Shown here in pieces: positions 1 to 19,961 of a DNA stretch of 20,000 nt. The notes under the pieces were generated by a model. That model searched no databases. It was not told the DNA's origin and saw only the letters and a list, made by a program, of their open reading frames with translations. The position numbers and the translations under genes were made by a program. Origin of the DNA: Cladosporium halotolerans (lineage: Eukaryota); the NCBI RefSeq assembly GCF_011745625.1, contig NW_027191506.1:58021-78020 (forward strand), given 5' to 3'. How positions within the stretch are numbered: position 1 is the first letter of the stretch; each line of letters starts with the position of its first letter.

Positions 1-1
1 A

Positions 2-115
2 AAGGCGCATTTGAGGCAAAGCCATAGCGCTTTCGCATTGAGCGTCAGGAGAGAAATCGAAGCATTCGTGAACACACTCACAGACGTTGCGCATCGACAC
101 GAAGAAGTCTACCCC
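2..115 (+). pseudogene. Fragment of a TLH/YR-helicase family member (copy A), N-terminal zinc-finger region; begins before the window and is truncated near 110-120
   Basis: Frame reads KAHLRQSHSAFALSVRREIEAFVNTLTDVAHRHEEVYP. It aligns with HLQTHHKRLSIEQRNDFVSRVEGCTELAKIHADVVYP (copy D) and HLREHHPQVGKEKRSRIAAIGVALEEVAHSKEEVVYP (copy E). Similarity stops after YP. Confidence 0.7.
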
Positions 116-651
116 CCACGGGTCCCCGGTGAGACCGGGCCCTCCCCTACTTATACCGGTCCTCGGATAACCCCGTCGATCCTTCGATTTTTACCTCGAC
201 GGCTATCGTAGCTACGGGGCTCTACCTATTTTTACTATATACCGGATTACTTAGACTATAAGGGAAAAATAAAGTCCCCCTTCTAGAGCGGATTATAGAG
301 GCTAGAAAAATAAATAGGTCGAGGGAGCTAAGTATCCCGAGGCTAGATATTCCTTATATCTTAGCCGTCTTAATTTTCTTAGGCTATTCCTATTTTTTTA
401 CGGTAGTATAGGGTATATACTACTTATACCCTAAATATCTAAGCCGGAGAAAATCTAATACCTTTTAGAAAATTAGCCGAAGGATACTTAGGAGGCCTAG
501 GGTTAAAGTACCTATAATTCCTTAAGTATATATATTTAGAGGGTAACTCTTAATATAATAAGCTTAGGGAGGTAAACTCTACCTAGTATATAAGTATAGG
601 TATCCTAAGTCTCTTACTTTTAGATATAGTAAGATTAGGGTTAGGGTATAT

Positions 652-1122
652 TTAGTATAATACTTAGCTAATTTTATCTCGAGCCCTCGATTTTTTTAGA
701 GCTTAATTCTATTTTTCCTATATAGTCGAATACTAAAAGAGTCTAATAAAAATAAAAGCTAAATAGGAAAAAATCGGAGAGGCGAGATAAATTTCCGGTA
801 AAATATCCCTTATAATTTAAGGGCGGATATTAAGGTTATAGCTTTATCTAGATCGATCTTAGAGATAGATATATCTCAGAAATATAAGCTTAGGGTAGCC
901 CCGGTCCCCCTAGGGTAGTTTATAGATTTAAATATAAGGATATAATAATTATCTCTATTATACTCCGGTTAGAGGTAGGGTTAGTAAAGTATTTAGCTAA
1001 TTTTAACTCGAGACCTAGATTTTTTAGGGCTTAGCCCTATATATCCTATATAGTCCTATACGGATAGAATTTAGGAAAAATAACGGTTAAGTAAATAAAA
1101 ATCGGAGAGACGAGATAAAATT
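652..1122 (+). repeat. Two diverged ~140-bp direct repeats (652-793 and 981-1122), each preceded by TTAGGG-like sequence
   Basis: Shared blocks TTAGCTAATTTTA.CTCGAG, CCTATATAGTC and AAAAATCGGAGAG.CGAGATAAA at an offset of ~329. TTAGGGTTAGGG at 635-646 and TAGGGTTAG at 976-984. Confidence 0.8.
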
Positions 1123-1234
1123 CGATAGAGTTTTCTACCTTTTTTTTAAAGAAAGTATTATCTAACTATTACCTATATTTAGAAGATATATCCCGCTAAG
1201 TATTAAGAGATCTATAGGAATTATCTACTTTTCT

Positions 1235-4200
1235 TTAACCTTTCTTAGGCCTTCCTCTCTTATTAGTCTTTATCCTTTTAGGTCTTCCTCTTCCCTTCTT
1301 ACTAGGTTCTCTCTTCGGAGTATTTTCTTTTATATTTAAATTAATATTAATCTTCTCTTCTTCTTCTCTTTCTTTTTCTCTTTCTTCCTCTTCCTCTTCT
1401 CCTTCTTCTTCTTCTAAAGATAGACTATCTCGATTAATATAAGATCTTTTAGAGTTAATATTAGATCTAGCTATACTAGAATCTCTCTCTTTACGAGAAT
1501 TAGATATAGATCTATTATCTAAAGAGCTATAAAAAGCTAAAGGCGGAGTAGCTAGTTCTAAATTATCTAAACTTAAATCTATAGGATTATTATAAGTAGG
1601 AGATTCTAAATTAGTAGTATTAATAAAATCCTCTATTTCCTTATTTTTAGGAGGCGATTTAATATTATCTAAAGCTTTTAGATTAGTAGAATCTAATTTA
1701 TTAGTATATTTATTAGTATCTAAAGAATTAGAGCTAGAATCTATGATAATTCGCTTATCTAAATTAGGTATATTCCTTTTAGAAGATAGGTTCTTATTTA
1801 ATATATTAGAAGAGCTACTAGACGAGCTACTAGAAGAGCTACTAGTCGAACTTCTCTCTAAAATATCCTTATCCTTTATAGTAGTAGGAGCTATAGAATT
1901 AGCGTTAATATCTAAAGATTTAAAGCTAGAGCTAGAGCTAGAGCTAGAACTAGAACTAGAACTAGAGCTAGAGCTAGAGCTAGAACTAACCCTAGAATTA
2001 GATTTTAGTAGATCCTTAGGATTAAAATCCTCTATTATAGTATCTATAGTAATATCTTTATCTAAATTAAAATAATTAAAGTAAATTTTAGAATATTCTA
2101 ACGATCTAATAGTTATATCTCTAGTTTTATTACTAAAATAGTTCTCTTCTCTAGCGTAGTTTAGATTAGACGTTAAGCTAGATCTATTAGCTAATATATC
2201 CTCTATTCTATTAGGTTCTTTTCTTTTATTATTATTATTTTTAGTAGGACTTAGTAGGTTAAGATTATTATTAAGAATCTTTTCTTTAATTATATAAGTA
2301 ATTAAATACCGATAAGGCTTTAGGGTTAGACCTTTACTAAAGTATAGTTTAGTCTCTCTAAAAAGTAAAATACTTAATCTAGTAGAACTTATTAAAGTCT
2401 TATTATTTTTTAAAAAAAGCTTAGTTTCGATAGTTTTATAGTTTAGGTAAGTAAAGTTAAGATAGTCGATAAACGGTCTAAGGATAGTAATATAATATAT
2501 AACGACTCTAGTAAGTCGAGGAGGTAGATATCTGATATTTTTATTATCTAACTTAGTAAAATCTCGACTTTTACTATAGCTAGTATTAATAGCTATTAAG
2601 TTAGACTCTCTATTAAAAAAGATATTTCTAAATTTACTAATATTACTATTTTTATAATTTAGAATAATAATTTCTTCTCCTCTTAGAGGACTACTAGTTA
2701 ATAGATAGATATTTAATACTAGTAATTCTAGAAATCGATCTAGCTTTTTAAGATATTCCTTTATATTACTTAGGAGGTTATCTCCTCTATTAAGGAAGTT
2801 ATTAATAAGGGTATTAGGATCGAGAAAGCGCTCGATAAGTATATCTCTAAACCTACTTAGATAAGTAGTAGTAGATAGGTTATAGTAAGGAGTTCTATTA
2901 TCTATATTATCGTCTATTCTCGAATAGTCTATATCGATAGTATTATTATAAAGGCTATCGTTTTTAAAGAGAAGTAACTCTCTAAAGAGTAAACTCTCTA
3001 TATTAGTTAAGATATTATTAAATAGATTTTTTAGTCTAGGTATATAAATATTAATATTATCGATAGCGATCGTATTATTATCGATCTCTCTAATCGGTTT
3101 ATAAGAGCTAACTATTTTATAATTATAATATTTCAATTTATTCCTAATATAATATAGTTCGCTAAAATAGTTATTAGAATTAATACTTAGAAGATTTTCT
3201 AGAGTACTTTTAAAGAATAGAGTAGGATCTTCGATATAATCCTCTTTACTATAAATCTTATAATTTAAATATCCGAGAGTATATAATCTACTATTATATA
3301 TAATAGCCGAAATAGCTTTTTCTAAAGTATCTTATCTTTTAAAACTATTAGAAGTCCTTTCTAAACTTCTTATAATATAGAAAGTTAAGGTAGGATTATT
3401 AAAGTCTCTATTAGATAGAAGGTCGACTTCTAACTCTATAGAGAGAAGTTTATTAAAAAGTTTAAGAATAAGTATCCTTATATTATATAATTCTTTAGGA
3501 TTTAAGGTATTATCTTTACTATTAGTTAGGATTTCTTTATAATATTTTAGGTCCTCTATAATATTTAATATATCTTCGTTAATAATAGGCGTATTATAAA
3601 TATCTTTAGATTTAGTACTAATATTATAGATATAGACTAGTAGTAAGCTAAATTCTCTAAAGTAGGATCTTTTCGTTTCTTTCTCTAAAGCTTTAAAAGG
3701 TCTAATCTCTCTATTAGTAGAATTAGAATTAGTATTATTAATAAGTATTCTAGTACTTAGAGATAATAAATCTATATCTAAGGATATTTCGTCTCCTAAA
3801 GTAATAGTAAGATTATAGAGTATATTTAAAAAGGTATCTTTAGCTTCTAAATCTTTATAGATAAAATCGTTAAGGATAGATAGATCTTTTCCTTCTAAGT
3901 ATTTATAAAAATTAGTAGTTCTATTAAGGAAAGATCCTTCTTTATTAATATTAGTAATAGTATCTTCCTTATATATAGTAGAATTAGCTATAGTATTATA
4001 CTCTATATTGAAGTTATTAATTAGATCCTTAGAAGAAGGATTATTTAAATTAGATCTAAGTCTTAAGTTAGAGCTCCGATTAGAGCTATTACTATTAGTT
4101 ATATTAGTATTAATATTAGGTAGCTTAGGTATAAAGGTTATAGTCCTATTATATTTAAAACCTTTAATAATAGTAAGAGGGATATCTTCTAATATATTAG

Positions 4201-4758
4201 GATTCTTAATATTACTAATACTCTTAAGCTTATATTTATCGATTAAATATATAGATACTACTTTATAATTAATATTAGTAAAAGAATCTACTTTAGATTT
4301 ATACCCTTCTAAAGTTAGAGGTAGGTCTTTATAATAATATTTATTAAATTCTAATTTTTCTAGATCCTCTAAGGAATAAAATCCTTTATTAGTTATAAAA
4401 GGCTCTATAGTATTAAGAATTAGATTAGTAGATTTTATATTAGTTTTATTATTAGAAAGATAATCTTTAAGGTGATTTTTCTACGAAAATATTAGTAAAA
4501 GGACTTTTTAATAAATTAAAGAATAGATAAACTTACTTTTAGGTGGTTTTTTATAGTATTATAAGTAGGATTTATATATATTTTACACTTTCGGCAAATT
4601 ATTATCTTTATATCTTCTAAATATAATATAGGAGTATTAGGTAGACCTATAGTAGAGCTAGGTTTAATTTTATTAAAACTATCCTTAGTATAAGGCTTTA
4701 GATCTTCGAGAAGATTATTAAAATCTACGTTAAAATAATTCTTAATAAGGTTCGACAT
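1235..4758 (-). CDS. Copy B: spliced C2H2 zinc finger + tyrosine-recombinase-like protein with Ser-rich/acidic tail and two AT-hooks, no helicase; ~1155 codons; exon1 4758-4537, intron 4536-4481, exon2 4480-1235; one internal TAA at 3332-3334
   Basis: Manual translation joins the 80-aa and 633-aa ORFs. The intron has a GTAAGT donor, CTAAT branch and TAG acceptor (56 nt, phase 0), and splicing rebuilds CRKC...NHLKKNH. The protein is colinear with the 15291 ORF (ILEDIPLTIIKGFKYNRTITFIPKLP vs VLENIPLQVLEGFPNNKKICFIPRLP; IYNSRL; SPLRGEE; KGLTLKPYR; ANRSSLTSNLNY). It ends in GRGRPK and KRGRPKK. Confidence 0.8.
1925..1988 (-). repeat. Hexamer microsatellite (AGAGCT/AGAACT)n encoding a poly-Ser tract in copy B
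   Basis: Direct reading of the tandem hexamers, matching the Ser run in the translation. Confidence 0.9.
4481..4536 (-). other. Spliceosomal intron (56 nt) splitting the C2H2 zinc finger of copy B
   Basis: Minus strand GTAAGT...TACTAATATTTTCGTAG; removal keeps the frame and restores the second His ligand. Confidence 0.85.
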
Positions 4759-4910
4759 TTTTTAAAAGTAATAGATCTTTTAAAAAGATTTTTAATTTAG
4801 TAAAATCCGAGGGATAGTCGATAAAGTAATCGATAAAGTAATAATCGATAGAAAAGAAGAGGAAAGGGTAGAGAAAGGAAAAGCGAAAAAGAAGTCCTTA
4901 GATCTTCCCT

Positions 4911-5017
4911 ATCTACCCCTCTCTACCCTTCTCTACCCTTCTCTACCCTTCTCTACCCTTCTCTACCCCTCTCTACCTCTTTCTACCCCTCTTTTCCCCT
5001 CTCTACCCCTCTTTTCC
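4911..5017. repeat. Tandem 10-mer minisatellite (CTCTACCCYT)n upstream of copy B
   Basis: About 10 units with some degenerate 9-mers; the purine-rich stretch AAAGGGTAGAGAAAGG at ~4863-4878 is its reverse complement. Confidence 0.9.
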
Positions 5018-5212
5018 CGGTAGATATATCGGTAATAAGCCCGGCTTTATTAATAAAAGAAAAGGGAGCGGACGGAAGCGGAGCCTTAACCCTAACCCTT
5101 AGATAAAGACGAATATAATAATATAAATAGTCCGGATTTTAATAGTAATATAGAAGGATTAAGTCTAAGGGAGCCTTAATTATTACCTACTAATATATTC
5201 TCTTATCTTTAG

Positions 5213-5398
5213 AGATAATAGTAAGTACTTTCTCCTTTATAAAAAATAATAAAAAGGCTAGTTAAGATTACTAACTAAAGTTATAGATTTAGTTATAAGC
5301 TTTCTAGGAAAAGACGTTTATACTCTCGACTTTATTAAAGAGACTAGAGAGATCTATATTTCGAGTTCTTTAAGCTCGGAAAAAATTATCGATCTCCT
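5213..5398 (+). pseudogene. Fragment of a spliced gene divergent from copy B, product unknown; intron 5221-5286
   Basis: GTAAGT at 5221, perfect TACTAAC at 5269-5275 and TAG at 5284-5286, followed by an open frame LVISFLGKDVYTLDFIKETREIYISSSLSSEKIIDL cut at 5399. Confidence 0.4.
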
Positions 5399-5633
5399 TG
5401 TTACAGTGAAGTGAAGTCAGGACTCAGGTCACATGACTTGGTCACGTGACTCGGGTCGGGTCACGTGACTCGCGAAGCCACGCCTGGAGGGCGCTTGGCA
5501 GCTGCGTACGGCTCACCTGCGGAGCGTAGGGGACTCGTCCGCAAAGTAGCGATTAGTCTTGTACTGGGAGCAGTGATTGCTCAGCAGTGTCCTATACGTT
5601 GCGAGATTTATCTTTTTAGATAATCCTTTATCA
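5399..5633. mobile_element. Possible solo LTR or LTR fragment (not RIP-saturated)
   Basis: Starts TGTTACA and ends ...TTATCA; three GTCAC[A/G]TGAC palindromes at 5428-5470; GC-rich island with CpA/TpG inside CpA/TpG-free DNA; no clean TSD. Confidence 0.45.
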
Positions 5634-5641
5634 GTCTCCCC

Positions 5642-6733
5642 GATACGACTCTATTAAATAAAGTAGGAGATAATCTAATAGACTTAGACTACTTTAAAGA
5701 TCTTAAGAAAGTCCCGTACTTTCTAGATAGAATAATTACGCCGGGAACTCCGTATAATACTAAACTACTTAAAGGACTAAAAGATAATAAACTAATCTTT
5801 AAATCTAATAAAATAGAGAAGTATAATAGGGATATTAATCGATTTCTAGAGTACCTTACTCTAGCTATCCTATTATTTAGCGGAGGTCCTTTAAGAGCTC
5901 CCGAGCTAACTACTATAATATATAAGAATATAGAGTCGAAGAATCGCTCGCTACTTTATAATAAAGATAATAACCTATTTACTATAACTACGGACTACTA
6001 TAAAAGTAAAAATATTACTAGAAAAGAAAACTTAAATATTAGATATATACCGCCTATACTTAGTAAGATATTACTCGTTTATATTATATATATTATTCCG
6101 TTTAAGGAAAATATACTAAAAGAATACTATAACCTAGAAGATTATAATACTCCGTACTTACTAGTAAAGGATAATAAGCTACTAACTAGCTATAATATAA
6201 CTACTATACTTAAAAAAGAATCTAGCCTCTATTTTAATAAAGGATTAACTCTCTATAGTTATAGAAAAATAATAAACTATATAATTAAAACTAAATTTAA
6301 TAATAAAGACTACTTTAGTAGTTCGGATACTAATATAAGCGATAATATAGAAGATCGGCAAGCTAATAGATCTACTAAAACTAGCTTTAACTATTACTTT
6401 AATACCGGATCCTATTTTAGTAATTTAAATAATATCTATAACCTAAATAAAATTAAGGAATTTAGTATTCTATACTTTAATTATTTTAATCTTTTAAAGT
6501 CCCGGGATATATCTAATAGTCGAGATATTAGTAAGGCTATAATAGATACTAGTATAGAAGATACTCCTAATTATAATAGTAGTAGTAATAATAACCTAGA
6601 ATTTACTATAAATACTAAGGATTTAGAGAGTAATATTAGGCTACTTTATAAGAATAATAAGCTAGGGTTTAAAAGTAAAGAGCAAAAAGACGGATTAATT
6701 AATATTACTAATAATATACCTATTATAACCTAC
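5642..6733 (+). pseudogene. Copy C: internal fragment (364 stop-free codons) of a YR-helicase gene, spanning the recombinase domain to just before helicase motif I; truncated at both ends
   Basis: Absent from the ORF track because it has no start codon. It translates DTTLLNKVG...FSGGPLRAPELTTIIYKN...TDYYKSKNITRKE...KGLTLYSYRKIINYIIKTK...EDRQANRSTKTSFNYYFN...FKSKEQK...PIITY, closely colinear with the 15291 ORF. Confidence 0.9.
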
Positions 6734-7177
6734 CATTAGAGGACGAAAAACTCGAGTCGAGTTGTTTGAATTCTCACGTAAATGAACCCTTAGGGTTGGA
6801 AGTAGGGAGTCGAGTTCTTTGCTTTATCTGAGACGTGTTTTTCGCTTTTACGATACTTAAAATGCCCAAATTTGCAGCTGGGCATTGCGATAAGAATCAG
6901 CTCACCGCACGCTCGATCGCAGCCGAATATTCGGAACGATGGTGCGGCAATGGTGTGCTGCCATCTATTGCAGATAGACGAGTTTGGGGTTCAGGTAGGG
7001 ATTCTTCCCCACAATACAGTGCCCTAGGCACTTACAGCCGACTCCTTCCACGCCACTTTAATGACAGACGCGAGACAATACTGCACATAGCTGCATTAGG
7101 AAGCGCCGATACCGATTATAACAAGAGCAGACTCTGTACCATATTGGAAGAATGCATATCTCATAGTTGGAGGAGTG

Positions 7178-10100
7178 ATGGACGATTTTCGACGTATCTT
7201 TGAAATTGACTCTCGCCACCGCATTTTGATCTGCCTACCTTGTCAATACGCTGTAATACCTTCACATACCAAGACGCATCTCCAGACCCACCACAAGCGC
7301 CTCAGTATTGAACAGCGAAACGATTTTGTCTCGAGAGTCGAAGGATGCACAGAGCTCGCCAAGATACATGCTGATGTTGTTTATCCATTGCCAACTGAGC
7401 CTCCGATTCCTAGCATCCCAGTGTATTTCGATGGCCTGAGATGCGACGGCACCGATATACAAGGCGACAGATGCCAATACATATGTCGTACTATATACAG
7501 AATGCAAGAGCACTGTAAGCGGGAACATCAATGGGTGAACCGACAAACACGCGGAGGTGACTCGCGAGCGAAACGAAGCCACACACAAAACAAGAGGTGG
7601 ACGGAACACCATGCATGCCAACGGCTATTCAAAGTTTCTACTTGGCAGAAATATTTCGAAGTCGCCCGTCAAAACATTGGGAGTGGCAGTCAGAGTCGAG
7701 CAGAAGTAAGGCACGACTTCTTCCGCACTCAGGAAAACGATGTGCGACAAGCAGAGCATGACGCCACCGAAGATGCTAATCGAGTCCACGGCTTCGACGA
7801 CCATGTCTCCGCCGTAGTCCCTTGGCTTAGAGAGACGGGCATCGCGGATCATATCAACCATCTCAAAAAAGACGAAATCCGAACAGCGATAACGGTTCCT
7901 CCGCCAGGGGGTGAGAGTGATCTCCGGGTAATAATCGACGCGATGGAGTCACTGCTACGAGATGCCCACAGGCTATGTTTCGACGGGCCGGACTGCATGC
8001 TGACTTATCAATGTCGAGTCGTCCTCAGCCGCTTCCAGCCGTCGCAAGTCGACCTGACAGGCAAGACCAGACCGTTCGATCCGTACAAAGGACCGAAGAG
8101 TCTTACGGCATACTTTGGAATAGCGCTTCGATTCGTGTCATATTTCGCTAGGGTTGTAGCTCCTGATGAGTACCACTTTAGTCCAGCAGCAAATACCGAC
8201 AATGATAGCGAAGGACAGAGGCCGGAGGATATTATCGGGGCAACAGATGAGCAGTTGGCGGCATGGCGAGACATCCACCAGATGACACAGCGGAGGCGCA
8301 CAGAACGGACCGAGGATGACAACAACGACAATAGCGACAACGATGAAGAGGACGCCGAAAGGGACAGTGAAATGAAGAAACGGCTTCTGGAGCTGTGGCT
8401 GCTTCTCATCTGCCACACCACCGGCGCTCGGCGATACCAGTCGCCTCTACTGAGCTTTTGTGCCATGCTCAGCATCAAGCCGTCGACGCGGAGTTGGATG
8501 GAGCCTGGCAACTTCAACAGCAGCCTCTCCGCCATGATATGGGTCGTACAATTGCTAGTGTTCTACGACAGCGCCGTAAAGGAACAGCAGGGATGTGGGG
8601 AGACGCTGAAACTGGTGAAAGCCTACTGCGACCAATATCTTCAACAGACCGTGGAGACACCTATGGGAGAGATACTCAGATGGCGCTTGTTATTATTCAA
8701 GGTGTCGGGCGCGACCGTTGGCACCCATGAAGCTTCTTGGGACGAAAGTGAAGAGGTACTCACATACGGGGACACCGAATTACGGATGGACCACATCCCG
8801 TCCCTGCTTGCGTCTGAGTACCGGGGGTGTTGCCAGCTCCTTTACGACGATCTGATGCTGGGTCTCACGAGTCTTCGCCGAATGAGTCCTCGGCTCCTCA
8901 AAGACGGTGTCAACGTCGATACCGTGAGTTGGAACTTCGTCCAACACAGAGACAACGCGACGATCCTCGATGGCACAGAACGAGCATTGATAAAAGCAAT
9001 GGAACGATCTGAGCAATTATGTCGAATCTTTCTTGTTGAGAATAGTCAGTCGCCCGGTGGATTGGCATGGAGGGAGAGCGCAATGGCCAGTTACGAAGCT
9101 ACCGTGCAGGAGTTTCTGAAACGGCTCAGCGTCCTCATACACATCAGTGGCGGGCAACCTGTACGGGAGAGCGAGTTCTTTTCGATGACATATCGCAACA
9201 CGCAGCGGCGACGGTCTATCATCATCCGCTTCGAGCGTGTGATGGTACACGTGCAGTACCACAAAGGCCAGCAGCAGACGGGAAGCTACAAAGAAAATGT
9301 CCGCTTCCTCGCCAACCCTATCGGAGAATTGCTGCTCGACTACATCACTTACGTCCTGCCGTTACGTGAGAGGTTTCTACGGCAGACCTCACCTGGATCG
9401 TTACTTTCCCCGTACCTTTGGGAGAAGGATGGAAAAGTGTGGCCGGAAGGCCATCTAAGTCGGTACTTGGAGGAAGCAAGTGTTCGGGCGTGCGTGCCGC
9501 GGCTTCACGTCGCCAACTGGAGGCAGATCACGGTGGCCATCGTAAAGACCAAGTTTGCTAGCCAGATCGAATGTTTCGATCCCGACGAAGGCGACGAAGA
9601 CGCAGAAGAGATCGATGCAACGATCAGGAGTATGACCGAACAGCGTAATCACAAAACACGGACAGTGAACCGGGCATACGCCAACCAGGCCGGGGCAGTT
9701 TTTGCCAATTTGTGGGATGGGAAAGTCCGGACGGGACTACAGGCTTCGACGCTGTGGCAGGATTTCTGGGGCGTAGGAATGATCCTCAAGCAAAAGAAAC
9801 GTGGGAAATTGGAGCAAGAATCTCGCTTGGCGAAACGGGTCGCTATGGGCATCTACCGTCCTCGGAAGCCTTGGTCGACCGAAGCTCTCCTTGGAGGGGT
9901 GAGGAAGCTGTATGGCAATAAAGAAGCAGGCTGGAAATCCGTCGAGCAGGAGCAAGCTCTCGCGACGATAATGTCGTGGACCGAGCAGGTAGTCGCCATC
10001 CTTCCCACGGGAGCTGGGAAGAGCTTGCTCTTTATGCTTCCATGCACTCTACCCGACGCCGGGGTAACAATACTCATCGTACCGCTCGTTGCACTTCACG

Positions 10101-11681
10101 GAGACATGCTTCGGCGTGTGCGCGAGATGAAAATTGATCACCTCGAGTGGCAGCCAGGCGAAAGTCGAGAAGCAGCACTGGTACTAGTCAGCGCCGAGGC
10201 CGTTTCGTCGAAGGACTTTATGAAGTATGCTCGTAGGCTGATAGCAGAGCAGAAGCTCGATCGGATCGTGGTCGACGAGTGCCACCTGACTGTGACTGCG
10301 GCCGAATATAGGCCCAGCATTATCGAGCTCACAGCGATCAGGAGCCTGAGAACTCAGTTCGTCTACCTTACAGCCACCCTCCCGCCATCTATGAGGGCGG
10401 AATTCGAGGAGAGGAACTATCTGCACCACCCTACAGTGGTCAGGGCACCCAGCAATCGACCGAACATCTTCTATATGGTGCGTAGGATCGACGCTCACTT
10501 GGGAAGCCTTCTCAAGCAGGCTGCAACCGAGGCCAAAGAGGCATGGATGGAGTCGGGTTTCTTCGACCACGCCTACGACAAGATCATACTGTACGTTAGG
10601 ACGTGCAAAGATGCAGACGATCTGGCAGAGCTACTCGGCTGTGATGCGTACACGGCAGAGAGTGGGACACCGGCAGAGAAGAAAGAGATACTCGATCGAT
10701 GGGTTCGGACTCCGGACACGCCTTACATCGTCGCCACCACCGCTCTTGCCGAAGGGTTCGACTATCCACACGTCCGGCTCATCATGAACGTGGACGAGCC
10801 GGAGTCGTTGGTCATCTTTGCCCAAGAGTCCGGTCGGGCGGGACGGGACGGGAAACGTGCATATTCGATGGTATTACTTCCCGCAACCTGGCAGCCTCAG
10901 GTCTCAGATGTTCCGTTGGATGAGCCGCGCGGGACGAACAACTACAGAGATGACCCGACACTTCGGAAGCGCCACGATAAGGAAGCAGCGCATCGATACC
11001 TACTGGGCAAGCAATGCTACCGGACGTCCCTGAGTGACTACTTGGACGTCGCTCGCCATCGAAGATGGTGCATGCCCGAAGATGGTGCATGCCCGAAGAT
11101 GTGCCTTGCGACATTTGCAAGGTGGCGCATCAGGGCATGATCGAACCCGTGGATAAAGTCGAACAGGACGACACACAGGGCTTCAGCTCATCCAGCAAGA
11201 AAAGCTTCGGGCCCACACAGAACTAGCGCAGTATCGTCTGGACCTAGCGAGTGTGAAGGGAACGTGCTTGCTCTGCAGGACAGCCAGACACGACTGGAAC
11301 CATGATTTCTCGACTTGCCCACGGCGTTTCGACATCTTTGAAGAAAGGAACAAAGCCAGGCGGCGGCACGAAGAACGAGGGCGGAAATGGCTACAGGCAT
11401 ACTCAAGCTGCTTCTGGTGTCTGAATCCGCAATCGATCTGTCAACAAGCGGAGCTGGGAAGCAGGGGTGGTAGAGGTTGCGAATACAGAGACATTGTACT
11501 CCCGCTCTGCTTCGGAGTTTTCGGGAGCGTTGAAGGGCCAGGGTGGCTTTACGAGCAGTTCGAGCGGAAGTTCAAGAACGTGGAGGATTACTTTGACTGG
11601 CTAGGAGAGGAAAGTAGATTTGGAGGAGGAAGCGCGATACAAGCAGTGCGAGTAGCAGGGCTAGCTCTACGGTCAGTGTAA
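7178..11681 (+). CDS. TLH-like protein: C2H2/DUF3505-like N-terminus + tyrosine-recombinase-like domain + RecQ-type helicase + Cys-rich C-terminus; 3' end broken by two frameshifts (main ORF ends 11140, C-terminal part continues in the 11253-11681 frame)
   Basis: ICLPC...HLQTHH; GGQPVRESE, YHK, HVANWRQ, QRNHKTRTVNRAY; LPTGAGKS, DECH, TAT, QESGRAGRDG; CYR...WC...CDIC; CLLC, CFWC. ATG at 7178. Confidence 0.9.
11060..11101 (+). repeat. 17-bp tandem duplication CGAAGATGGTGCATGCC causing a frameshift
   Basis: Units at 11060-11076 and 11077-11093 followed by CGAAGATG; removing one unit gives WCMPEDVPCDIC. Confidence 0.9.
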
Positions 11682-11735
11682 GGATCCTAATTATGTTTTC
11701 GTACGTTGAGAAGTAGGAGACTAAACCCTAACCTC

Positions 11736-12776
11736 TTGGAAGTGAAATAGATAAAAAATGAAATTAAAGGTTAAATGAAAAATGAAATAGGAAGTAGGAG
11801 AAAGAATAGAATTAGATAAAGTAGATATTAGGTTTAGAATTAGGAAATATATATAAGATAAAATAGGAATAAAGTTTTTTTTTTTTTTGATTTAAGGAAA
11901 AGAAAAGAAGAGGGAAAAAGGGATAAAGGAGAATATTTTAAAGAAAAAAAAAAGTAAGAAAAATAGAAGGGAGTTAGGGTTAGAAGTAGAGTAGATTAGG
12001 AAGAGATTAAAAGGTTTATTATAGTAAAGAAATGATTAGAAGTTAAAGGGTAAATTAAAGAATAGTAGTAAATTAATGTTAGTAAGATTAAAAGTGTTAA
12101 ATAAAAATTAAAAAGATAAAGGAGAGAAAATTAATAAGAATAGAAAATTAGTAGGATTTAAAATAAATAAGAAGAAAATTAAGGAATAAAGATAGAAGAA
12201 TAAAAGATAAATTAAGAGGAGTATTATAAGTAAGATAATAATAAAAAAAGAGTAATAAAGAATAGAAGGATTTTAGAGTTTAGGGTTATAAAGAATTAGA
12301 AGTAAAGAGGTTTTTTTTTTTTTTTTTTTTTTGAAAAAAGAAAGAAGAAAAAGGGAAAAAAAAAAGAGAAAAGATTAAGAAGGTAAAAAAAAAAAAAAAG
12401 AGAAAAGATTAAAAAGGGAAAAAAAAAAAAAAAAAAAAAGAGAAAAGATTAAAAAGGGAAAAAAAAAAAAAAAAAAAGGAAAGTTAAGGATAAAGAGAGA
12501 GATAAGTAGAAAGAATAAGAAGAGAGAAAAGAGAGAAAGGTTAGGATAAGGAGAAAAGAAGAAAAGAAGAATAAAAGAGAAAGAAGGATGTTTAAGAGGA
12601 TTATAGAGGATAAGAATAAAGATAAGTAGTAGAAATAAGTGAAGGTAAAGGAGATAGAATATAGTATAGATATAAAATAGAAAGGATAGGAATAAATAGA
12701 TGATTATAGTATAAGATAGATAAAAGAAGAAGAAGAGAAGAGAAGGAGAGAAGGAGTAGGATTAGGATTAGGATGA
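11736..12776 (+). repeat. Cytosine-free A/G/T low-complexity tract with poly-T and poly-A runs, GAGAAAAGATTAA units and TTAGGG/TTAGGA motifs
   Basis: No C seen between the C at 11735 and the C at 12777. Confidence 0.9.
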
Positions 12777-12780
12777 CTCT

Positions 12781-14241
12781 CATTCTACGAAGAAATCACG
12801 GTGGTTTTTTTGAAACGTAGGCGAAATTTGAGGTGGGTCCGGCTTATCGAGACGGTGGTTTTTTTGAAACTTCGACGGTGGTTTCTTTGAGCATCTGATG
12901 TCGTAAAATCACGAGATAAAAGCAGAAGATACATTCTTGCATCGCAATACTAGAAATGTATTTAGATACGATAAACAGCGTTTTCTTAGTGTTGCATGTA
13001 TGAGGTCTTCTGAAGGGTTAGGGCATCGCGACGCGGGGCTGTGTAACAGAACACGCTGGCGTCGCAAATATAATGTCGGCGTTGACAGAAGAAGAAAGCA
13101 AGATTCTTTCTTGGGAGGGAAGGGCTAGGGAATAATTGCGATGCGGCGCGTAAATATATAGGCATCGCCCGTCGAGTTCAAGAAAGCGTTAGGGTTTACA
13201 CGAATTATTCTTTTCACAGCATCAGAAGTTGACACAAGAAATCTGGAGCAAAAATGGGTCGCGCTGGATGTGACTTTGACAGCATTCTTCAACACAGACA
13301 ACGATACAAGATCATCATATGCAAGCCGTGTGCTTTCGCTGTCGTACCGGAACAAATCGATCGTCACTTGCGTGAGCATCACCCGCAGGTCGGCAAGGAA
13401 AAGCGTAGCCGGATTGCGGCGATTGGGGTAGCGCTAGAGGAAGTAGCACACAGCAAAGAGGAGGTCGTATACCCGCAAGCGAACGAAGGACCGATTGAAG
13501 GGCTCGCGGTATACAAGGACGGGCTGCTGTGTATGGGACAGCGAGACGGAAAGGCTTGTGAATATGTCTGCCGAACGATTTCTGGAATGCAGAAACACTG
13601 CCGATCGGAACACGGCTGGGTGAACGAGAGAGGACGTGGAGGAAATGTGCGAAAGAAGGGGTTACAAGCGTTGAATCGAATGTGGGAAGACAAGCAGAGG
13701 TGTCAGCGATTTTTCGAGTACCGGCAGTGGCAACGATACTTTGCCGTATCACGAGAGGAATCGATCGGAGAAGACGGAGAGGGGGACGAAGCAAGGGAGG
13801 AAACGATCGATGGCGAGTCACAATTGCGAGAAGTGTTACGAGAGAGCCGAGCAAAGGTGTCTGACGCACGGCAGCGGCAGGCCGTCGACGGCAGCTTCAA
13901 ACGATACGTTGCAGACCCGTGGCTCGAATTCACAGGGTGGCACAGACACTTGCAAGGCTTTCAGTGGGACGATCTACTGCGGTTCGTCGAGCCGACGGCT
14001 AGAGAACAATTGCAGAAGCAGGGAAAGCGCGGGAAAAAGGCGGTCCGCATGCCGGAAGAGGATGAAGGAGAGGAAGAGCTAACGAGAGCTTGCAGAGGGA
14101 CGAGGAAGGTAGTACGAGAGGCATTCGAGGCGTGCAGACCGGGGACGACAGGCAGAGCGATATTAGAGTACGTCAACAGAAAGGAAGCGGCGGGGGATCA
14201 GCCGAGCATGAAGGCGTTCGATGGCAGCCGGAAGCCGAGAT
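12781..14241 (+). mobile_element. Copy E: 5' part of another family member (leader plus truncated gene)
   Basis: Sharp start after the C-free tract; three ACGGTGGTTTYTTTGA repeats; AGGGTTAGGG at 13014-13023; ORF homologous to the copy D N-terminus. Confidence 0.65.
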
Positions 14242-14288
14242 CTAACATTACCCCAGCTGGTGAAACCTGGTTACACCAGCAGTTTTGA
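13254..14288 (+). pseudogene. 3'-truncated TLH-like gene (DUF3505-like N-terminal ~330 aa); the last 14 residues are read-through into the copy F leader
   Basis: ICKPCAFAV...HLREHH, CEYVCRT...MQKHCRSEHGW, CQRFF...WQRYFAV and PWLEFTGW match copy D; ends NITPAGETWLHQQF, identical to the end of ORF 14463-15116. Confidence 0.85.
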
Positions 14289-14342
14289 ACCCGGTTACAC
14301 CAGCAAGGCTTTAGGGTTAGGGTTGTTGCTGGTGTAACCAGG
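14256..14342. promoter_or_regulatory. Four copies of GGTTACACCAGC (reverse, forward, forward, reverse) with TTAGGGTTAGGGTT between the last pair; putative recombinase or telomere-protein binding site (repeated at 15084-15170)
   Basis: Copies at 14256-14267 (reverse, 1 mismatch), 14269-14280, 14293-14304 and 14328-14339 (reverse); telomere repeat at 14311-14324. Confidence 0.6.
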
Positions 14343-14471
14343 ACAGCTACTGACAGGGGTAAGAAATTTCCATATTGTAAGCATTGTCCAACTTATGAAA
14401 AATTGTAGGTATTGCAGATTGAAATCCAATCGCAAAAACCTGTCGTTTAGGGTCGAAGCGAATTGGTAAGC

Positions 14472-15116
14472 ATGGAGTCGGACAACTTGGCTGCGACTTA
14501 CGCTTTCAACGATCTGCTGCGTTCCACTAGCAAGCTTTGCAGCCTGTCTTTCTACCAAAAACACATCCCATGCGCACCGGTGCAAGTAGTCAATGACTCC
14601 AGCATATGCTACAGTCAAGATCTCAAGCTCCTCTTGTGTACTACTTGCAGCAAAGTTCAGAGCCGAGATACGACGATCCGGCATCTAAAGCAGAGGCACC
14701 GCACCGAGTACAGCCGATTAAAGAAGGCCTTGAAATCGATTCAAGACGAAATCAGCCGTTTACCTATCAACGCTGCGGAAGCAATCAGCATCAGCCATAA
14801 TAAATATTACTTCTCTTGCTTGCCCATCACCTTCGACAACTTCAAGTGTAGAGAGTGTGCTTATGTCGACATCAATCGAAAGAACGTCCGAAACCACTTC
14901 CAGTCGCACCATTCTTGTCATATCAAGAGTACTAAGAGTACGAACCAGAGGGCAGACTACGTACTCGAAAACATTCCTCTTCAGGTCCTAGAAGGGTTCC
15001 CTAACAACAAGAAAATTTGCTTCATTCCCAGGCTACCAGTTCTCCAAACCGATACACCATCCACCCAGCCTAACATTACCCCAGCTGGTGAAACCTGGTT
15101 ACACCAGCAGTTTTGA
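14472..15116 (+). pseudogene. Truncated first copy of the copy F gene (two zinc fingers only)
   Basis: Identical to the first ~200 aa of the 15300 ORF, then reads into the second leader. Confidence 0.9.
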
Positions 15117-15299
15117 ACCCGGTTACACCAGCAAGGCTTTAGGGTTAGGGTTGTTGCTGGTGTAACCAGGACAGCTACTGACAGGGGTAAGAAATTTCCA
15201 TATTGTAAGCATTGTCCAACTTATGAAAAATTGTAGGTATTGCAGATTGAAATCCAATCGCAAAAACCTGTCGTTTAGGGTCGAAGCGAATTGGTAAGC

Positions 15300-18200
15300 A
15301 TGGAGTCGGACAACTTGGCTGCGACTTACGCTTTCAACGATCTGCTGCGTTCCACTAGCAAGCTTTGCAGCCTGTCTTTCTACCAAAAACACATCCCATG
15401 CGCACCGGTGCAAGTAGTCAATGACTCCAGCATATGCTACAGTCAAGATCTCAAGCTCCTCTTGTGTACTACTTGCAGCAAAGTTCAGAGCCGAGATACG
15501 ACGATCCGGCATCTAAAGCAGAGGCACCGCACCGAGTACAGCCGATTAAAGAAGGCCTTGAAATCGATTCAAGACGAAATCAGCCGTTTACCTATCAACG
15601 CTGCGGAAGCAATCAGCATCAGCCATAATAAATATTACTTCTCTTGCTTGCCCATCACCTTCGACAACTTCAAGTGTAGAGAGTGTGCTTATGTCGACAT
15701 CAATCGAAAGAACGTCCGAAACCACTTCCAGTCGCACCATTCTTGTCATATCAAGAGTACTAAGAGTACGAACCAGAGGGCAGACTACGTACTCGAAAAC
15801 ATTCCTCTTCAGGTCCTAGAAGGGTTCCCTAACAACAAGAAAATTTGCTTCATTCCCAGGCTACCAGTTCTCCAAACCGATACACCATCCACCCAGCCTG
15901 AAGTCGCAACACCCCAGCCTGGCAACAGTCGCCCACACTTCCTTGCCGAAGATGTTCGAACAGCGATCCTTAACGCACATGAAAAGAGCATCGAAGAGAG
16001 GGAGTGTGAACAGTCGTACAACGATGCAGCCTCTAACAACAAGAAATTACTCAATAGCTTCCTCACTAACTCCAACCTTCTCGACTTCCTCCAGGAGAAG
16101 GACAGAGACATCCTTGTCGATCTCATCAGCACACCCACTAGCACTAATCTCAAGCTCGAGAAAGATCTCGACCTCGAGCTGCTCGAGGCAAACATCCTTA
16201 GCTTCATGCTCGAGGCGCACAAGCACATCCCCCACCTCACGAGAAGATTGCGGCAGTTGCTGAGAACGGAAGACGTCTCGAAATCGTACAAGGAAATGAA
16301 AGACTTTATCCAGTTAACAAGGCCCGAACCGCACTTCAAGAAATACTGTCGACTGGCAACGTTCATAATCCGAGTCCATCTCATCCAGGAGAACTACAAG
16401 GAGGCGTCTTCTGATACGATCAAGAGTAAATACTTCGATGCCACCGAGCATATCCATCTCAGCGAGGAGACTAGAACGTTCATAAAGCGGCTCATGGACC
16501 TTGGAATCAAGCCGATCCAGGACGATACCGATCAGGAATATACCCCAGCTTTACGCAGCATCGTCGCTCGACTTTTCCACTCCCTGTTGAAGGATCAGAT
16601 CCACTTGAAGGTCAAAGAGAACAACACGTTCAGGAACTCGGTTGTCTTTTTTTACTTCTGTAACATCTTACACCCGCAGACAAAAGAGGTCCTCGACAGC
16701 CCCATGGTCAGCAAAATTGCCAGCATCTTCATCTACAACAGCCGGCTGATGTTCCTCGCCTACTACTACGCCGTTGAAGATAAACACGTGCTTAACGAAC
16801 ACGATATGAATCGAATGTACGAGAAAGAAGTTCGCAAATATCTCAGCAACGATTCGAAGAATTATTTCGAGGAACTCACGCAGATCCGGGCCTTCAGTTT
16901 GAAGCTCGCCAAACAGCACAAGTCGACGACTTATACCATCAAAGAGAGCCCGGCGGGCACAGTAGAGTTCAACGGCGTGCCATATCCTATCGAACACATC
17001 AAGAACTTCTTCATGCGGTTGGGCGTTCAATTGGAAGGGCAACTCAAGAGTAAGCTGCTGTTCGTCAATCACCTGGACACGCTCGGGATCGATTTCAGCC
17101 GGATCGAAGATACGCCGCTACTCAACAAGACTGGCCAGAGCATTGTCGATACCCCGCAACTCGAGCGATTCAAGTCATGGTTCCTCCAGGAGCTCGTCAA
17201 GGGGGACAGCGAGCACAATCGATTCTTCGTCAAAGACGTGCGGGGCGGTCGAATCCGATTTAAACAATCGAGCGTTCAGCGCTTCCTTGCGGATCTCAAC
17301 ACTTTCACGGAGCTCCTCGCCAATGCCATCAACCTGTACAGTGGTGGCCCTCTCCGAGGCACGGAGCTAAATCTGATCCTCTACAAGAACACTAGCATAA
17401 AGGATAGGAGCATGTTGTACAACAAGGATGCGGGGATGTTCTTTGTGAAGACCGATTACAACAAGACCAATAATATCACGCGCAAGGAAAGGGTCAGCTA
17501 CCGCTACCTCACACCGGTGCTCAGTAGGATCGTCATCATCTACGTGGCAGCCGTCTTGCCGCTAAGGGACTACATCTATCGCCAACACTATCGCGACGAG
17601 CAATACGACAATCCGTACCTGCTAGGCAGAAACCAAGGGGCCGTCAGCTCGTACTCGATCAGCATTCGCTTGCAGAAGGAGACGTCCACCTCTTTCCGCA
17701 AAGGACTGAGTCTACAGGCGTGGAGGAAGATAATCAACTTCATCATCAAGACCAAGATGCACGCATCCCCGCTCGATCCCGACGATAGTAGTGACAGCAG
17801 CGACGACGAAGACCTCGTGGAAGACAAGCAGGCCAACAGAACCACCCAAGTCAGCTTCAACCACTATTTCAACTCGGAATTCTTCGTGAACAGCACCGTC
17901 ACCCCAAAAGATCTAAGCGCACTTCGAGAGTTCAGCATCCGGTACTTCAATTACTTCAACCTGCTGGACGACTTGCAGCCCACGGATCAGAAGTACAGCC
18001 GTATCACCATGAGCACTGATCCAGGGCCGGTCGAGATGGTCACGCTCGATAACAGAGGCGTGCTGCAGCGCCTAAGGAGGCTGTACGGCGACCCGAACGC
18101 CAACTTCTTCAACAACGAACAGAGAAAGTGCGTTAGTCAAGTGCTCTCGGGTCGACCGTACATCACATACATCAACCGAACGGGCTCGGGCAAGTCGTTG

Positions 18201-19961
18201 GTGTACTTGCTGCCGGCGTTCATCAAGCGGAACCACCTGCACGTCATCATCACCCCCCGACTCGCCCTAAAGGACGATCTCTACGGAAAAGCATGTGAGC
18301 TCAAACTCCGTCCGAGTCGGTTCGAGGACGCGGTAACATACGACAGCAACCTGATTTTCTGCTCGGTGGAAGACCTCGACTCGCAAGGGCTGAAGCAAAT
18401 CATCGGCAGGCACAAGACGCTTGGAAGGGAGGTCACCATTATGCTCGACGAGGCGCACCTGTTCTTGATCGAGGCAACGTTCCGAGTCCAGCTTCGCAAC
18501 CTCATCACCATTCTGCAGTACAAAGCCGACGTGGTGTTCATCACCGCCACTCTCCCGCGGCCGCTCCTGCAGCTCCTCAACACGACGTTCGGCATCGCCA
18601 ACTTCAACAGCATCATCCGGGGTAGCAGCAACCGAAGCGACATCAGTTATCGAAGGGTGTACTACAGCGCCAAGGGAGACCGAGACGAGGTCGTTCGCGA
18701 GACGATCCGGGATATCGAGCGGGGAGACGACGACGTCCGAAACAAGGTCCTGATTTTCGTCACGAACAAGAAGCAGGGAGAGGATCTCGCGGAACTGTTG
18801 GGAACGGACACCGTCTACTCCGGCAAAAAAGACCTTCAACGGATCCTGCGCGAATTCCTCGAGAGCAAAACGCAAAGGTCACTGGTAACGACATCGGTCC
18901 TCGAGGTGGGGATCGATATCAAACAGATCAAGTACACGATCAGCGTCGAGCCGATCCATAGCTTGACTAGCGTCGTGCAATCCAGTGGACGGATCCGTCA
19001 GCGAGGGGTCAGCTACATCGTCTGCCAGCAGCCGAGCAAGAACAGTCGGAATCGGATCCAGCGGGATGCAAACGTGCGGCGAGAGGTTCGGGACATTGAC
19101 GATTTCAAGGAATTGGACCGGTCGTGGTACGGATTGCTGACTGTGGAAGAAGGCTGCCTCCGGACACCAATCAGCCAATTCTTAGACCACGTGCCGTATC
19201 GGTGTCAGGGCCATAGGGACGATCTCTGCTCGCTTTGCGTGGAGAACGAGCGGGTGAAGGAAGAGGGGCGGAAGAGGGAGGAAGGTGTAATGATGGAGAG
19301 ACGAAGCCGCTGGTTGGATCTGGAGGAGAAGCTGCTGCAGCTCAAGGAAATGTACTGCATGTACTGTGTGCTGGATCCGTACAACACCAGCAACAGCATC
19401 AACCACGCGGGGACAGAATGCCGAGCGATGCAGGGGGACAAGAAAATGAAGCTTGTACGTGGGCAGGTGGAAGGTGAGCTCCGACAGCAAAGGTTACCAC
19501 CGCACGAGTGCGGATGCATTCAGTGCCTGATACCGAAGAACATATGCTTGAAACAACAGGAGAACAACGGACTGGGGGAGGGAGAATGTTTGATGGGGCG
19601 ATTCCTGGTGGAAACGATGGCGGTGCTATTCCGTTTCCAAGAGCGGACGGAAGGGGCGATCGCCGGCCTACCAAAGCGGACGGAAGACTTGGGGGAGTTC
19701 GTGAAGAGGTTGATGGCGGCTCGGGGGTGGTTTACACTTAAAACAGTGCGATTAGTGGAGGTACTAGGAGGGTTGGATATAGTAGGGATGATAGAAGCGA
19801 TTGAAACCAAAGAAGAAGGGGAAGAAGGGGAGGAGGGACAGGTAGAGGAGAGGGCTTGGGTAGGACGGGGACGAAAGAGGCGGGCGAGCACGATGGGCAA
19901 GCCTAACCAAAAAGCAGCGGAGGGGAACACTTATCCCCAGCTAACCCCAAGTCGGCGCTAA
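15300..19961 (+). CDS. Copy F: uninterrupted ~1553-aa C2H2 + tyrosine-recombinase-like + RecQ-like helicase + Cys-rich protein (TLH-like)
   Basis: CTTC...HLKQRH, CREC...HFQSHH; SGGPLRGTEL, YNK, LQAWRK, QANRTTQVSFNHY; RTGSGKS, DEAH, TAT, TSVLEVGIDI, QSSGRIR; CLR...C...CSLC, CMYC, CIQC. First ATG at 15300. Confidence 0.92.
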   Translation: MESDNLAATYAFNDLLRSTSKLCSLSFYQKHIPCAPVQVVNDSSICYSQDLKLLLCTTCSKVQSRDTTIRHLKQRHRTEYSRLKKALKSIQDEISRLPINAAEAISISHNKYYFSCLPITFDNFKCRECAYVDINRKNVRNHFQSHHSCHIKSTKSTNQRADYVLENIPLQVLEGFPNNKKICFIPRLPVLQTDTPSTQPEVATPQPGNSRPHFLAEDVRTAILNAHEKSIEERECEQSYNDAASNNKKLLNSFLTNSNLLDFLQEKDRDILVDLISTPTSTNLKLEKDLDLELLEANILSFMLEAHKHIPHLTRRLRQLLRTEDVSKSYKEMKDFIQLTRPEPHFKKYCRLATFIIRVHLIQENYKEASSDTIKSKYFDATEHIHLSEETRTFIKRLMDLGIKPIQDDTDQEYTPALRSIVARLFHSLLKDQIHLKVKENNTFRNSVVFFYFCNILHPQTKEVLDSPMVSKIASIFIYNSRLMFLAYYYAVEDKHVLNEHDMNRMYEKEVRKYLSNDSKNYFEELTQIRAFSLKLAKQHKSTTYTIKESPAGTVEFNGVPYPIEHIKNFFMRLGVQLEGQLKSKLLFVNHLDTLGIDFSRIEDTPLLNKTGQSIVDTPQLERFKSWFLQELVKGDSEHNRFFVKDVRGGRIRFKQSSVQRFLADLNTFTELLANAINLYSGGPLRGTELNLILYKNTSIKDRSMLYNKDAGMFFVKTDYNKTNNITRKERVSYRYLTPVLSRIVIIYVAAVLPLRDYIYRQHYRDEQYDNPYLLGRNQGAVSSYSISIRLQKETSTSFRKGLSLQAWRKIINFIIKTKMHASPLDPDDSSDSSDDEDLVEDKQANRTTQVSFNHYFNSEFFVNSTVTPKDLSALREFSIRYFNYFNLLDDLQPTDQKYSRITMSTDPGPVEMVTLDNRGVLQRLRRLYGDPNANFFNNEQRKCVSQVLSGRPYITYINRTGSGKSLVYLLPAFIKRNHLHVIITPRLALKDDLYGKACELKLRPSRFEDAVTYDSNLIFCSVEDLDSQGLKQIIGRHKTLGREVTIMLDEAHLFLIEATFRVQLRNLITILQYKADVVFITATLPRPLLQLLNTTFGIANFNSIIRGSSNRSDISYRRVYYSAKGDRDEVVRETIRDIERGDDDVRNKVLIFVTNKKQGEDLAELLGTDTVYSGKKDLQRILREFLESKTQRSLVTTSVLEVGIDIKQIKYTISVEPIHSLTSVVQSSGRIRQRGVSYIVCQQPSKNSRNRIQRDANVRREVRDIDDFKELDRSWYGLLTVEEGCLRTPISQFLDHVPYRCQGHRDDLCSLCVENERVKEEGRKREEGVMMERRSRWLDLEEKLLQLKEMYCMYCVLDPYNTSNSINHAGTECRAMQGDKKMKLVRGQVEGELRQQRLPPHECGCIQCLIPKNICLKQQENNGLGEGECLMGRFLVETMAVLFRFQERTEGAIAGLPKRTEDLGEFVKRLMAARGWFTLKTVRLVEVLGGLDIVGMIEAIETKEEGEEGEEGQVEERAWVGRGRKRRASTMGKPNQKAAEGNTYPQLTPSRR

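Follow-up and report, generated by a model that had tools for sequence, protein, structure and literature searches.

A telomere-linked helicase relative without a helicase, from a fungal gene lineage that probably stayed under selection after saturation by repeat-induced point mutation

Repeat-induced point mutation (RIP), which targets repeats of at least ~80% identity, is usually seen as a dead end: stop codons accumulate in duplicates, and gene families are kept from growing. A locus in a 20,000-nucleotide stretch of Cladosporium halotolerans DNA (contig NW_027191506.1, positions 58,021 to 78,020; hereafter the window, whose coordinates we use throughout) raises the question of how a reading frame of more than a thousand codons can persist in DNA almost devoid of CpA and TpG, the dinucleotides that RIP converts. 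The gene in question lies on the minus strand at 1235-4758. We consider it probable, taking the parts of this reading together, that the gene is a helicase-less, AT-hook-tailed subfamily member of the fungal telomere-linked helicase (TLH) family, that its lineage became RIP-saturated while under selection, and that the copy in the window was recently disabled.

The locus spans 3524 nt at a GC content of 24.6% and contains exactly nine CA or TG dinucleotides (four CA and five TG, observed/expected 0.03 each), which lie at plus-strand positions 1744, 2533, 3134, 4009, 4473, 4544, 4586, 4595 and 4756. Five of these are the start codon (4756) and the Cys (4586, 4595) and His (4544, 4473) codons of the first C2H2 zinc finger; of the remaining four, one lies in a TTG codon and three at C|A codon junctions. 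Judged against the usual thresholds for RIP indices, the gene combines CpA/TpG depletion with an excess of TpA, its (CA+TG)/(AC+GT) being 0.04 and its TA/AT 1.48, compared with 1.09-1.12 and 0.63-0.69 for the GC-rich genes of the same window. The codons ACA, TCA, CCA, GCA, CTG and GTG are never used, no T|G codon junction occurs where 94 are expected, and there are three C|A junctions against an expected 54. Because the depletion spans codon junctions, it acts on the DNA independently of the reading frame, as RIP does. The block from 1 to 6800 is AT-rich throughout, with RIP indices as in typical relics.

Could AT-richness unrelated to RIP, through transfer from an AT-rich genome or through AT-biased mutation with selection on the frame, explain the locus instead? 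AT-rich relatives without a RIP signature do exist, such as the database protein P0040, whose 1245 residues include 136 Gln and whose Cys/His fingers are intact. We nevertheless regard this explanation as very unlikely for the window gene. The loss is specific to CA/TG and is accompanied by overrepresentation of CT, AG and TA, it crosses codon boundaries, and it reaches into the non-coding flanks of the gene and of its relatives, whereas the DNA adjoining the AT-rich block has 54% GC and normal RIP indices. Three of the six single-nucleotide polymorphisms (SNPs) that distinguish the window from other strains also fall at CA/TG sites, as detailed below.

The open frame is far from what this composition would give by chance. 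Exon 1 (4537-4758, 74 codons, ATG at 4756-4758) encodes both Cys and the first His of finger 1, and exon 2 (1235-4480) comprises 1081 codons, including an internal in-frame TAA at 3332-3334 and the terminal TAA at 1235-1237. The spliced frame thus holds 1154 sense codons and a single internal stop, compared with 127.5 ± 9.8 (minimum 97) in 1000 dinucleotide-preserving shuffles; the other five frames of the locus contain 49-272 stops. The predicted protein has no Gln or Trp, one Met, two Cys and two His. These counts bear out what the initial annotation had read from the letters, namely a frame of about 1155 codons with one stop, almost free of CpA and TpG and with the ligands of finger 1 as its sole Cys and His residues. 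As the annotation had suggested checking, relatives carry Glu or another sense residue at the position of the internal TAA. Scans of the window for tRNA genes and Rfam families gave no match.

The two exons are joined by a predicted 56-nt intron (4481-4536) with GTAAGT at its 5' end, a branch-like CTAAT and a terminal TAG. Homology supports this intron: its position is common to the relative P0001 and to the metagenome locus L001, and its removal would join the frames so that finger 1 acquires the spacing C-x2-C-x13-H-x4-H, in which the restored H-x4-H matches that of relatives. The contigs of four other sequencing runs contain no joint at 4481-4536; the sole contig spanning the intron, from run X11 (4388-4949), is unspliced and may represent DNA.

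Which family does this protein belong to? Pfam returned only an N-terminal OrsD-type zinc finger in exon 1, at an E value of 0.001 that lies below the cut-off. A BLASTP match to a GC-rich paralogue in the window, GC1 (E 3e-6), covers 239 residues just upstream of the GC1 helicase, and a second AT-rich copy in the window, copy 2, shares 37% protein identity with the gene. A profile search retrieves members that carry OrsD, DEAD and Helicase_C domains, with which the gene shares a tree. TLH proteins are described in the accessible text of two preprints as combining a pair of C2H2 motifs with a conserved domain of ~250 residues and a helicase of the RecQ type (10.1101/2024.02.27.582403, 10.1101/2022.03.07.483234). 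The window gene has the TLH domain at 2012-3154 and no RecQ-type helicase, inasmuch as Pfam finds neither DEAD nor Helicase_C in it; a PDB sequence profile gave matches only in the helicase part, and only for helicase-bearing rows.

Where helicase-bearing relatives have their helicase, the alignment places a Ser-rich low-complexity linker (1807-2002), built of tandem 6/12/24-nt repeats and shortened by a 36-nt deletion in strain X7, followed by a C-terminal tail at 1238-1300. The tail carries two GRP motifs (KKGRGRPKRIKTNKRGRPKKG), GRGRPKR and KRGRPKK, that are conserved across the subfamily and that resemble AT-hooks, defined as a GRP core flanked by basic residues; the Pfam AT_hook model matches weakly, in one of 15 members (E 0.017). 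Finger 2 survives as a remnant at 4229-4303, reading YKSKVD...IYLIDKY as against YKCKLC...KHLNIKH in P0001: the finger is present in relatives, and the window copy has lost all four ligands. Relative to searchable papers, the exchange of a helicase for AT-hooks is new.

The TLH domain itself is described as of unknown function in the available part of one of these preprints (10.1101/2024.02.27.582403). We modelled residues 60-440 of the downstream open reading frame (ORF) with AlphaFold2 from a 42-sequence alignment, which gave a pLDDT of 86 and a pTM of 0.85. In Foldseek searches of the PDB, XerA, Cre, XerH and the Tn1549 integrase ranked first, with weak E values of 0.04-0.1, and Pfam found no integrase-type or DUF3435 family in 15 members. 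The fold assignment is therefore based on VIA-align against 48,161 chains, in which XerA scored highest (Z 10.7, rmsd 3.2, 167 residues aligned), with XerH (9.3), XerD (8.6-8.9), IntI (8.2), a topoisomerase IB (8.2) and Cre (8.2) also scoring well; the top 30 rows are mostly tyrosine recombinases, type IB topoisomerases, Ndc10 or protelomerases. The model thus shows the TLH domain to have a tyrosine-recombinase/topoisomerase IB fold. The 42 sequences agree throughout at six residues (D, K, R, P, R and Y), and nearly so at the R of a PLRG motif. The conserved R (2681-2683), K (2570-2572), R (2309-2311) and Y (2156-2158), all on the minus strand, occur in the order of the catalytic set, which we presume, partly from the general R-K-H-R-H/W-Y consensus, to correspond to them; His positions vary among the 42 sequences. 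On the basis of this model, the domain may be catalytically active. No paper in the searchable literature contains both 'telomere-linked helicase' and 'tyrosine recombinase', and relative to those papers the fold of the TLH domain is new. It suggests how subtelomeric TLH units might spread.

The unusual composition is a property of a family rather than of one locus. A word-index search returned 16 homologues, 41-65% identical over up to 1213 residues, all 16 of which are rich in N, K, I, S, L and Y and poor in Q, W, H, C and M (0-15 Gln and 0-1 Trp each). A profile search of 1.84 billion representatives extended this to 3884 relatives at E <= 1e-3, 367 of them at E <= 1e-30; named relatives belong to Cladosporium, Hortaea, Friedmanniomyces and allied Dothideomycetes, and one relative of GC1 is called 'helicase tlh1' by its source. 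Of the 156 proteins examined, many of the long ones show the RIP-type make-up. P0020, for instance, has five Gln and no Trp in 1697 residues, and other long RIP-type members of 1500-1800 residues include P0019, P0024 and P0038. Columns that hold Trp, His or Gln in members of normal composition read Y/F/L/I, Y/F/H and L/S/H, respectively, in RIP-type rows. Separately, we considered whether Gln-rich, AT-rich relatives (P0040 and others) might be RIPed copies whose stops had been called as Gln, and rejected the idea, as their conserved Trp columns read F, L or Y and not Q and their zinc fingers are intact.

In a rapid maximum-likelihood tree of 114 core domains, 55 sequences of normal composition, GC1 included, form one clade, and its sister clade contains all 37 RIP-type rows. 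All 26 rows of the AT-hook group are RIP-type, and within it the window gene is sister to P0001 (SH-aLRT 96). GC3, another GC-rich paralogue in the window, and P0018, both of normal composition, nest in the RIP-type helicase group together with copy 2. With no more than 6-7 Trp in ~1560 residues, these two proteins may stem from an ancestor that RIP had affected and that later regained GC, or Trp may have been scarce in the clade from the outset. A family-wide RIP-type clade is likewise new relative to searchable papers.

DNA of relatives shows both outcomes of the RIP-type state. The metagenome locus L001 (3982 nt, 25% GC, 13 CA/TG) has an exon 1 followed by GTAAGT at the intron position of the window gene (GHFK|...|GKH) and an exon 2 without stops over at least 1141 codons, up to the contig end. 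L003 (31% GC, 57 CA/TG) has no stop in a 1176-codon frame that ends in AT-hooks. The paralogous metagenome loci L002 and L004, which come from one assembly and share 87.5% identity (307 transitions, 100 transversions), carry seven stops and about ten stops plus a frameshift, respectively, and each adjoins DNA whose GC content is 54% and whose indices are normal. This pair is decaying and offers a natural example of decay once hardening has taken place. Scattered stops in AT-rich copies, which the initial annotation had named, together with a dN/dS near 1, as evidence against continued function, thus occur in L002 and L004, and none is found in L001 or L003.

Could the gene instead be a plain RIP relic, descended from a GC-rich TLH-type gene by neutral RIP mutation and open merely by luck? 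The relic-like indices of the block at 1-6800 and the RIP-type polymorphism at the locus fit this idea, and the initial annotation had proposed simulated RIP on a GC-rich homologue as one way to judge it. When every CpA/TpG was converted, the GC-rich genes GC1, GC2 and GC3 acquired 66, 87 and 49 stops per 1000 codons, with longest open runs of only 61, 59 and 101 codons, and their GC content dropped only to ~40%; neutral RIP does not yield equally long open frames. The observed gene, at 24.6% GC, has a single internal stop in 1155 codons, or 0.9 per 1000. Open frames in the same state are also found in relatives at 40-65% identity. We therefore give the relic explanation next to no credence.

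A separate question is whether selection acted on the lineage while it was already in the RIP-type state. The copies for which DNA was obtained are only 27-45% identical, so that their synonymous sites have reached saturation, and the exclusion of CA/TG limits synonymous choice; for these reasons we used stop counts under simulated drift and a correlation of site rates in place of dN/dS. Neutral drift from the window gene with creation of CA/TG forbidden (30 runs) produced 32 stops (minimum 22) at 65% amino-acid identity and 63 (minimum 48) at 40%, whereas the copies observed at 40-65% identity hold 0, 0 and 1. That RIP-type relatives stay open at such distances argues that the lineage persisted under selection while RIP-exhausted. 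Per-site variability in the RIP-type AT-hook clade (23 rows) also correlates with that in the normal clade (55 rows; Spearman 0.50, p 8e-17, 239 columns), and at the 15 columns without variation in the RIP-type clade, mean entropy in the normal clade is half as high. Relatives in the same RIP-type state retain the presumed catalytic R, K, R and Y, and their constrained sites are the same. The simulations, the open relatives and the kept catalytic residues together support the view that the lineage kept functioning through RIP, and they suggest that selection acted during the RIP-type state itself. The initial annotation had claimed that the lineage went on functioning under repeated RIP; this stands for the lineage, and does not extend to present function of the window copy.

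Saturation changes what RIP can still do to such a gene. Stop-creating C>T or G>A changes in a CpA/TpG context number zero in the window gene, compared with 87 in GC1 and 76 in GC3; in any context there are six (all at CGA codons), against 138 and 113. RIP can thus make no nonsense codon here. Comparison with four other runs that cover the internal TAA (X7, X11, X16 and X17) revealed six SNPs, of which those at 1745, 4010 and 2308 lie at CA/TG sites. The first two are synonymous TpG>TpA changes in the other strains. The third lies in codon 2306-2308, which is TAT (Tyr342) in the window and CAT (His) in X7, a CpA>TpA loss in the window strain at a position where 20 of 37 RIP-type rows have His. 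Two further SNPs are C/G transitions in other contexts, one replacing R with K in an AT-hook and one P with S. The difference in contig depth in X7 (55 versus 16) was not taken as a copy number. The SNPs at CA/TG sites indicate that RIP still acts on the locus, and the gene is nonsense-proof, not mutation-proof. Of the earlier proposal that the gene had been recoded to lack RIP targets and so escaped genome defence, the absence of possible RIP-made nonsense is upheld; escape is not, as the locus still mutates, and survivorship describes the process better than recoding.

What is the state of the window copy? Probably it was disabled or truncated only recently. All four other runs carry the TAA at 3332-3334 unchanged, the 698-codon frame downstream of it contains no ATG at which translation could re-initiate, finger 2 is destroyed, and a conserved His has been lost in this strain by a RIP-type change. 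Copy 2 (5624-6739, plus strand), whose closest relative is P0020, is instructive in this respect: it comprises a TLH domain and the start of a helicase, is truncated at both ends and contains four CA and no TG, yet it is open over its 371 codons where 43 stops are expected. An open frame is consequently no proof of present function, and copy 2, which is certainly non-functional, shows that such frames outlast it.

Several observations weigh against this reading, and some of them favour the alternative that the window copy is itself a working RIP-proofed gene, its TAA being read through or its 454-residue zinc-finger product being functional. Wherever runs cover them, the five CA/TG sites in the start codon and finger 1 show no variation, whereas two of the other four are polymorphic. 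The intron has canonical signals at a conserved position. Both halves of the protein are colinear with P0001 without a frameshift (56% identity in the N-terminal half and 65% over residues 1-470 of the C-terminal ORF), and the terminal branch in the core tree is 0.19 compared with 0.15 for its sister P0001, which gives no hint of faster decay. Selection could still act on the N-terminal product of 454 residues or, by way of read-through, on the whole protein. In the contigs of the four runs we saw no transcript or spliced read, which shows neither expression nor silence. Other points concern the lineage as a whole. The RIP-type state of database proteins was deduced from amino-acid make-up only, and DNA was checked for four open copies (the window gene, copy 2, L001 and L003) and two broken ones (L002 and L004). 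Compositional heterogeneity was flagged in 59 tree rows, and this bias may distort deep branches. Normal-composition members of the clade that holds the RIP-type rows already carry other residues at many Trp positions; some of the 'recoding' may therefore be older than RIP saturation. Set against the fixed TAA without a downstream start, the four lost finger-2 ligands, the lost His and the persistence of copy 2, these points leave a working window copy unlikely, and we retain the reading of a selected, RIP-saturated lineage with a recently disabled copy.

Composition, a non-random frame, family, fold, RIP-type polymorphism and intact relatives provide direct support for this reading; beyond them, we infer a process of survivorship rather than directed recoding, and a window copy that is now dead. 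RIP would have struck the lineage until nearly every CpA/TpG was gone, while selection on the family purged stop-bearing versions, with the outcome that Gln, Trp, His, Cys and Met codons would have given way to others everywhere but at the start codon and a handful of zinc-binding or active-site positions. Once saturated, such genes would no longer offer RIP a nonsense site, and their frames would long remain open even where a copy is no longer needed. In the window copy, the damage consists of one fixed TAA, the loss of finger 2 and, in this strain, the loss of a conserved His through RIP.

Three GC-rich relatives lie elsewhere in the window. GC1 (7175-11140, plus strand; 1321 aa) combines OrsD fingers, a TLH domain and a RecQ-like helicase, and GC3 (15291-19961, plus strand; 1556 aa) has the same architecture, Pfam reporting OrsD, DEAD and Helicase_C in both; GC2 (13254-14288) is a GC-rich relative with OrsD only. 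The 5' part of GC3, including its upstream region and ~200 first codons, is tandemly duplicated (14262-15095 and 15090-15920, with an ORF at 14463-15116). A 200-nt GC-rich island at 5400-5600, between the AT-rich copies, has no RIP signature and contains three CACGTG/CACATG palindromes (gtcacatgac once and gtcacgtgac twice). Between GC1 and GC2, the DNA at 11500-13000 is AT-rich, with a GC skew of ~0.7, a purine-rich A/G strand and 40-nt A-rich repeats.

Five (TTAGGG)2-like motifs stand in the window beside these TLH-type units, against 0.14 expected. Telomere-like motifs lie at 635-646, 5084-5101, 14311-14322 and 15139-15150, that at 5084-5101 being ~330 nt upstream of the ATG of the gene and on its strand. 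Interstitial telomere tracts between the Y' elements of yeast offer a comparison. The window contains no terminal telomere array, and the short upstream flanks of L001-L004 contain no telomere-like motif, which suggests, on the little flank available, that the feature is not general. Between the ATG of the gene and the motif upstream of it lies a 10-nt satellite (CCCTCTCTAC, 10.6 copies, 4907-5012) that is polymorphic in X7. Downstream of the 3' end, a ~329-nt tandem repeat (645-795 and 974-1123) has units that each start with a telomere-like motif. The repeats around the gene show no clear terminal structure of an element. At 14294-14336 and 15122-15164, perfect 14-nt inverted arms (GGTTACACCAGCAA and TTGCTGGTGTAACC) enclose a 19-nt spacer with TTTAGGGTTAGGGTT; a third, direct copy of the arm lies 24 nt upstream, and the site is ~150 nt before the start of GC3. 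With its telomere repeat in the spacer, the site looks of the lox/FRT type and is a candidate target of the recombinase-fold TLH domain.

We put forward a wider reading as tentative, and would not ourselves bet on it. TLH units may be mobile or recombining elements of chromosome ends that use a tyrosine recombinase, and one clade of them may have become immune to RIP by exhausting its nonsense sites and have exchanged its helicase for AT-hooks that direct the protein to AT-rich, RIP-made DNA. If true, a gene family, selfish or domesticated, would have adapted to the very landscape that genome defence creates. The narrower reading of a lineage kept under selection after saturation has consequences of its own. 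A large multi-copy family shows a way through RIP, since a gene without CAA, CAG and TGG is not truncated after saturation, and a diverse clade has evolved in the saturated state with its active-site residues kept. AT-rich 'relics' that are masked in fungal annotations may therefore hold real genes; conversely, an open frame in RIP-type DNA is weak evidence of present function.

How does this gene compare with known systems? In the TLH genes themselves (Magnaporthe TLH1, S. pombe tlh1/2 and those of Ustilago, Fusarium and Botrytis), N-terminal C2H2 motifs are likewise followed by the TLH domain, and the window adds paralogues of full architecture and TTAGGG motifs beside the units; the window gene differs in having a Ser-rich linker and two AT-hooks in place of the RecQ helicase, a destroyed finger 2 and RIP-saturated DNA. 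With the tyrosine-recombinase elements of eukaryotes, namely Cryptons and Starship captains (DUF3435), it shares the fold, its conserved R, K, R and Y standing in the order expected, and its family is multi-copy with birth and death of copies; by contrast, the 15 TLH members lack a Pfam integrase or DUF3435 match.

Two further comparisons concern genes in RIP-affected DNA. The literature searched on RIP escape and resistance, and on RIP with Cryptons or AT-hooks, contains no description of intact RIP-saturated genes, subscription journals lying outside its scope. A subtelomeric RecQ ORF of Zymoseptoria tritici (3480 bp, 34.7% GC; 13 copies, seven of full length) is, as far as the available text goes, a long intact low-GC frame of the same gene family in a RIP-active Dothideomycete (PMC4522978). 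That text calls its GC content 'extremely low', with no tie in the part available to RIP exhaustion or stop-proof codons, and also mentions a few RIP-mutated retroelements without stops; the Z. tritici ORF keeps its helicase and is less extreme in composition than the window gene at 24.6% GC. The nearest concept is the leakage of RIP into effector genes in the AT-rich isochores of Leptosphaeria maculans, where, according to the accessible parts of two reports (PMC3105345, PMC2973834), genes in RIPed DNA gain RIP mutations and some alleles remain functional. Those genes are described as small, partially RIPed and often inactivated, whereas the gene described here has a frame of more than 1100 codons at saturation, in a state common to its clade.

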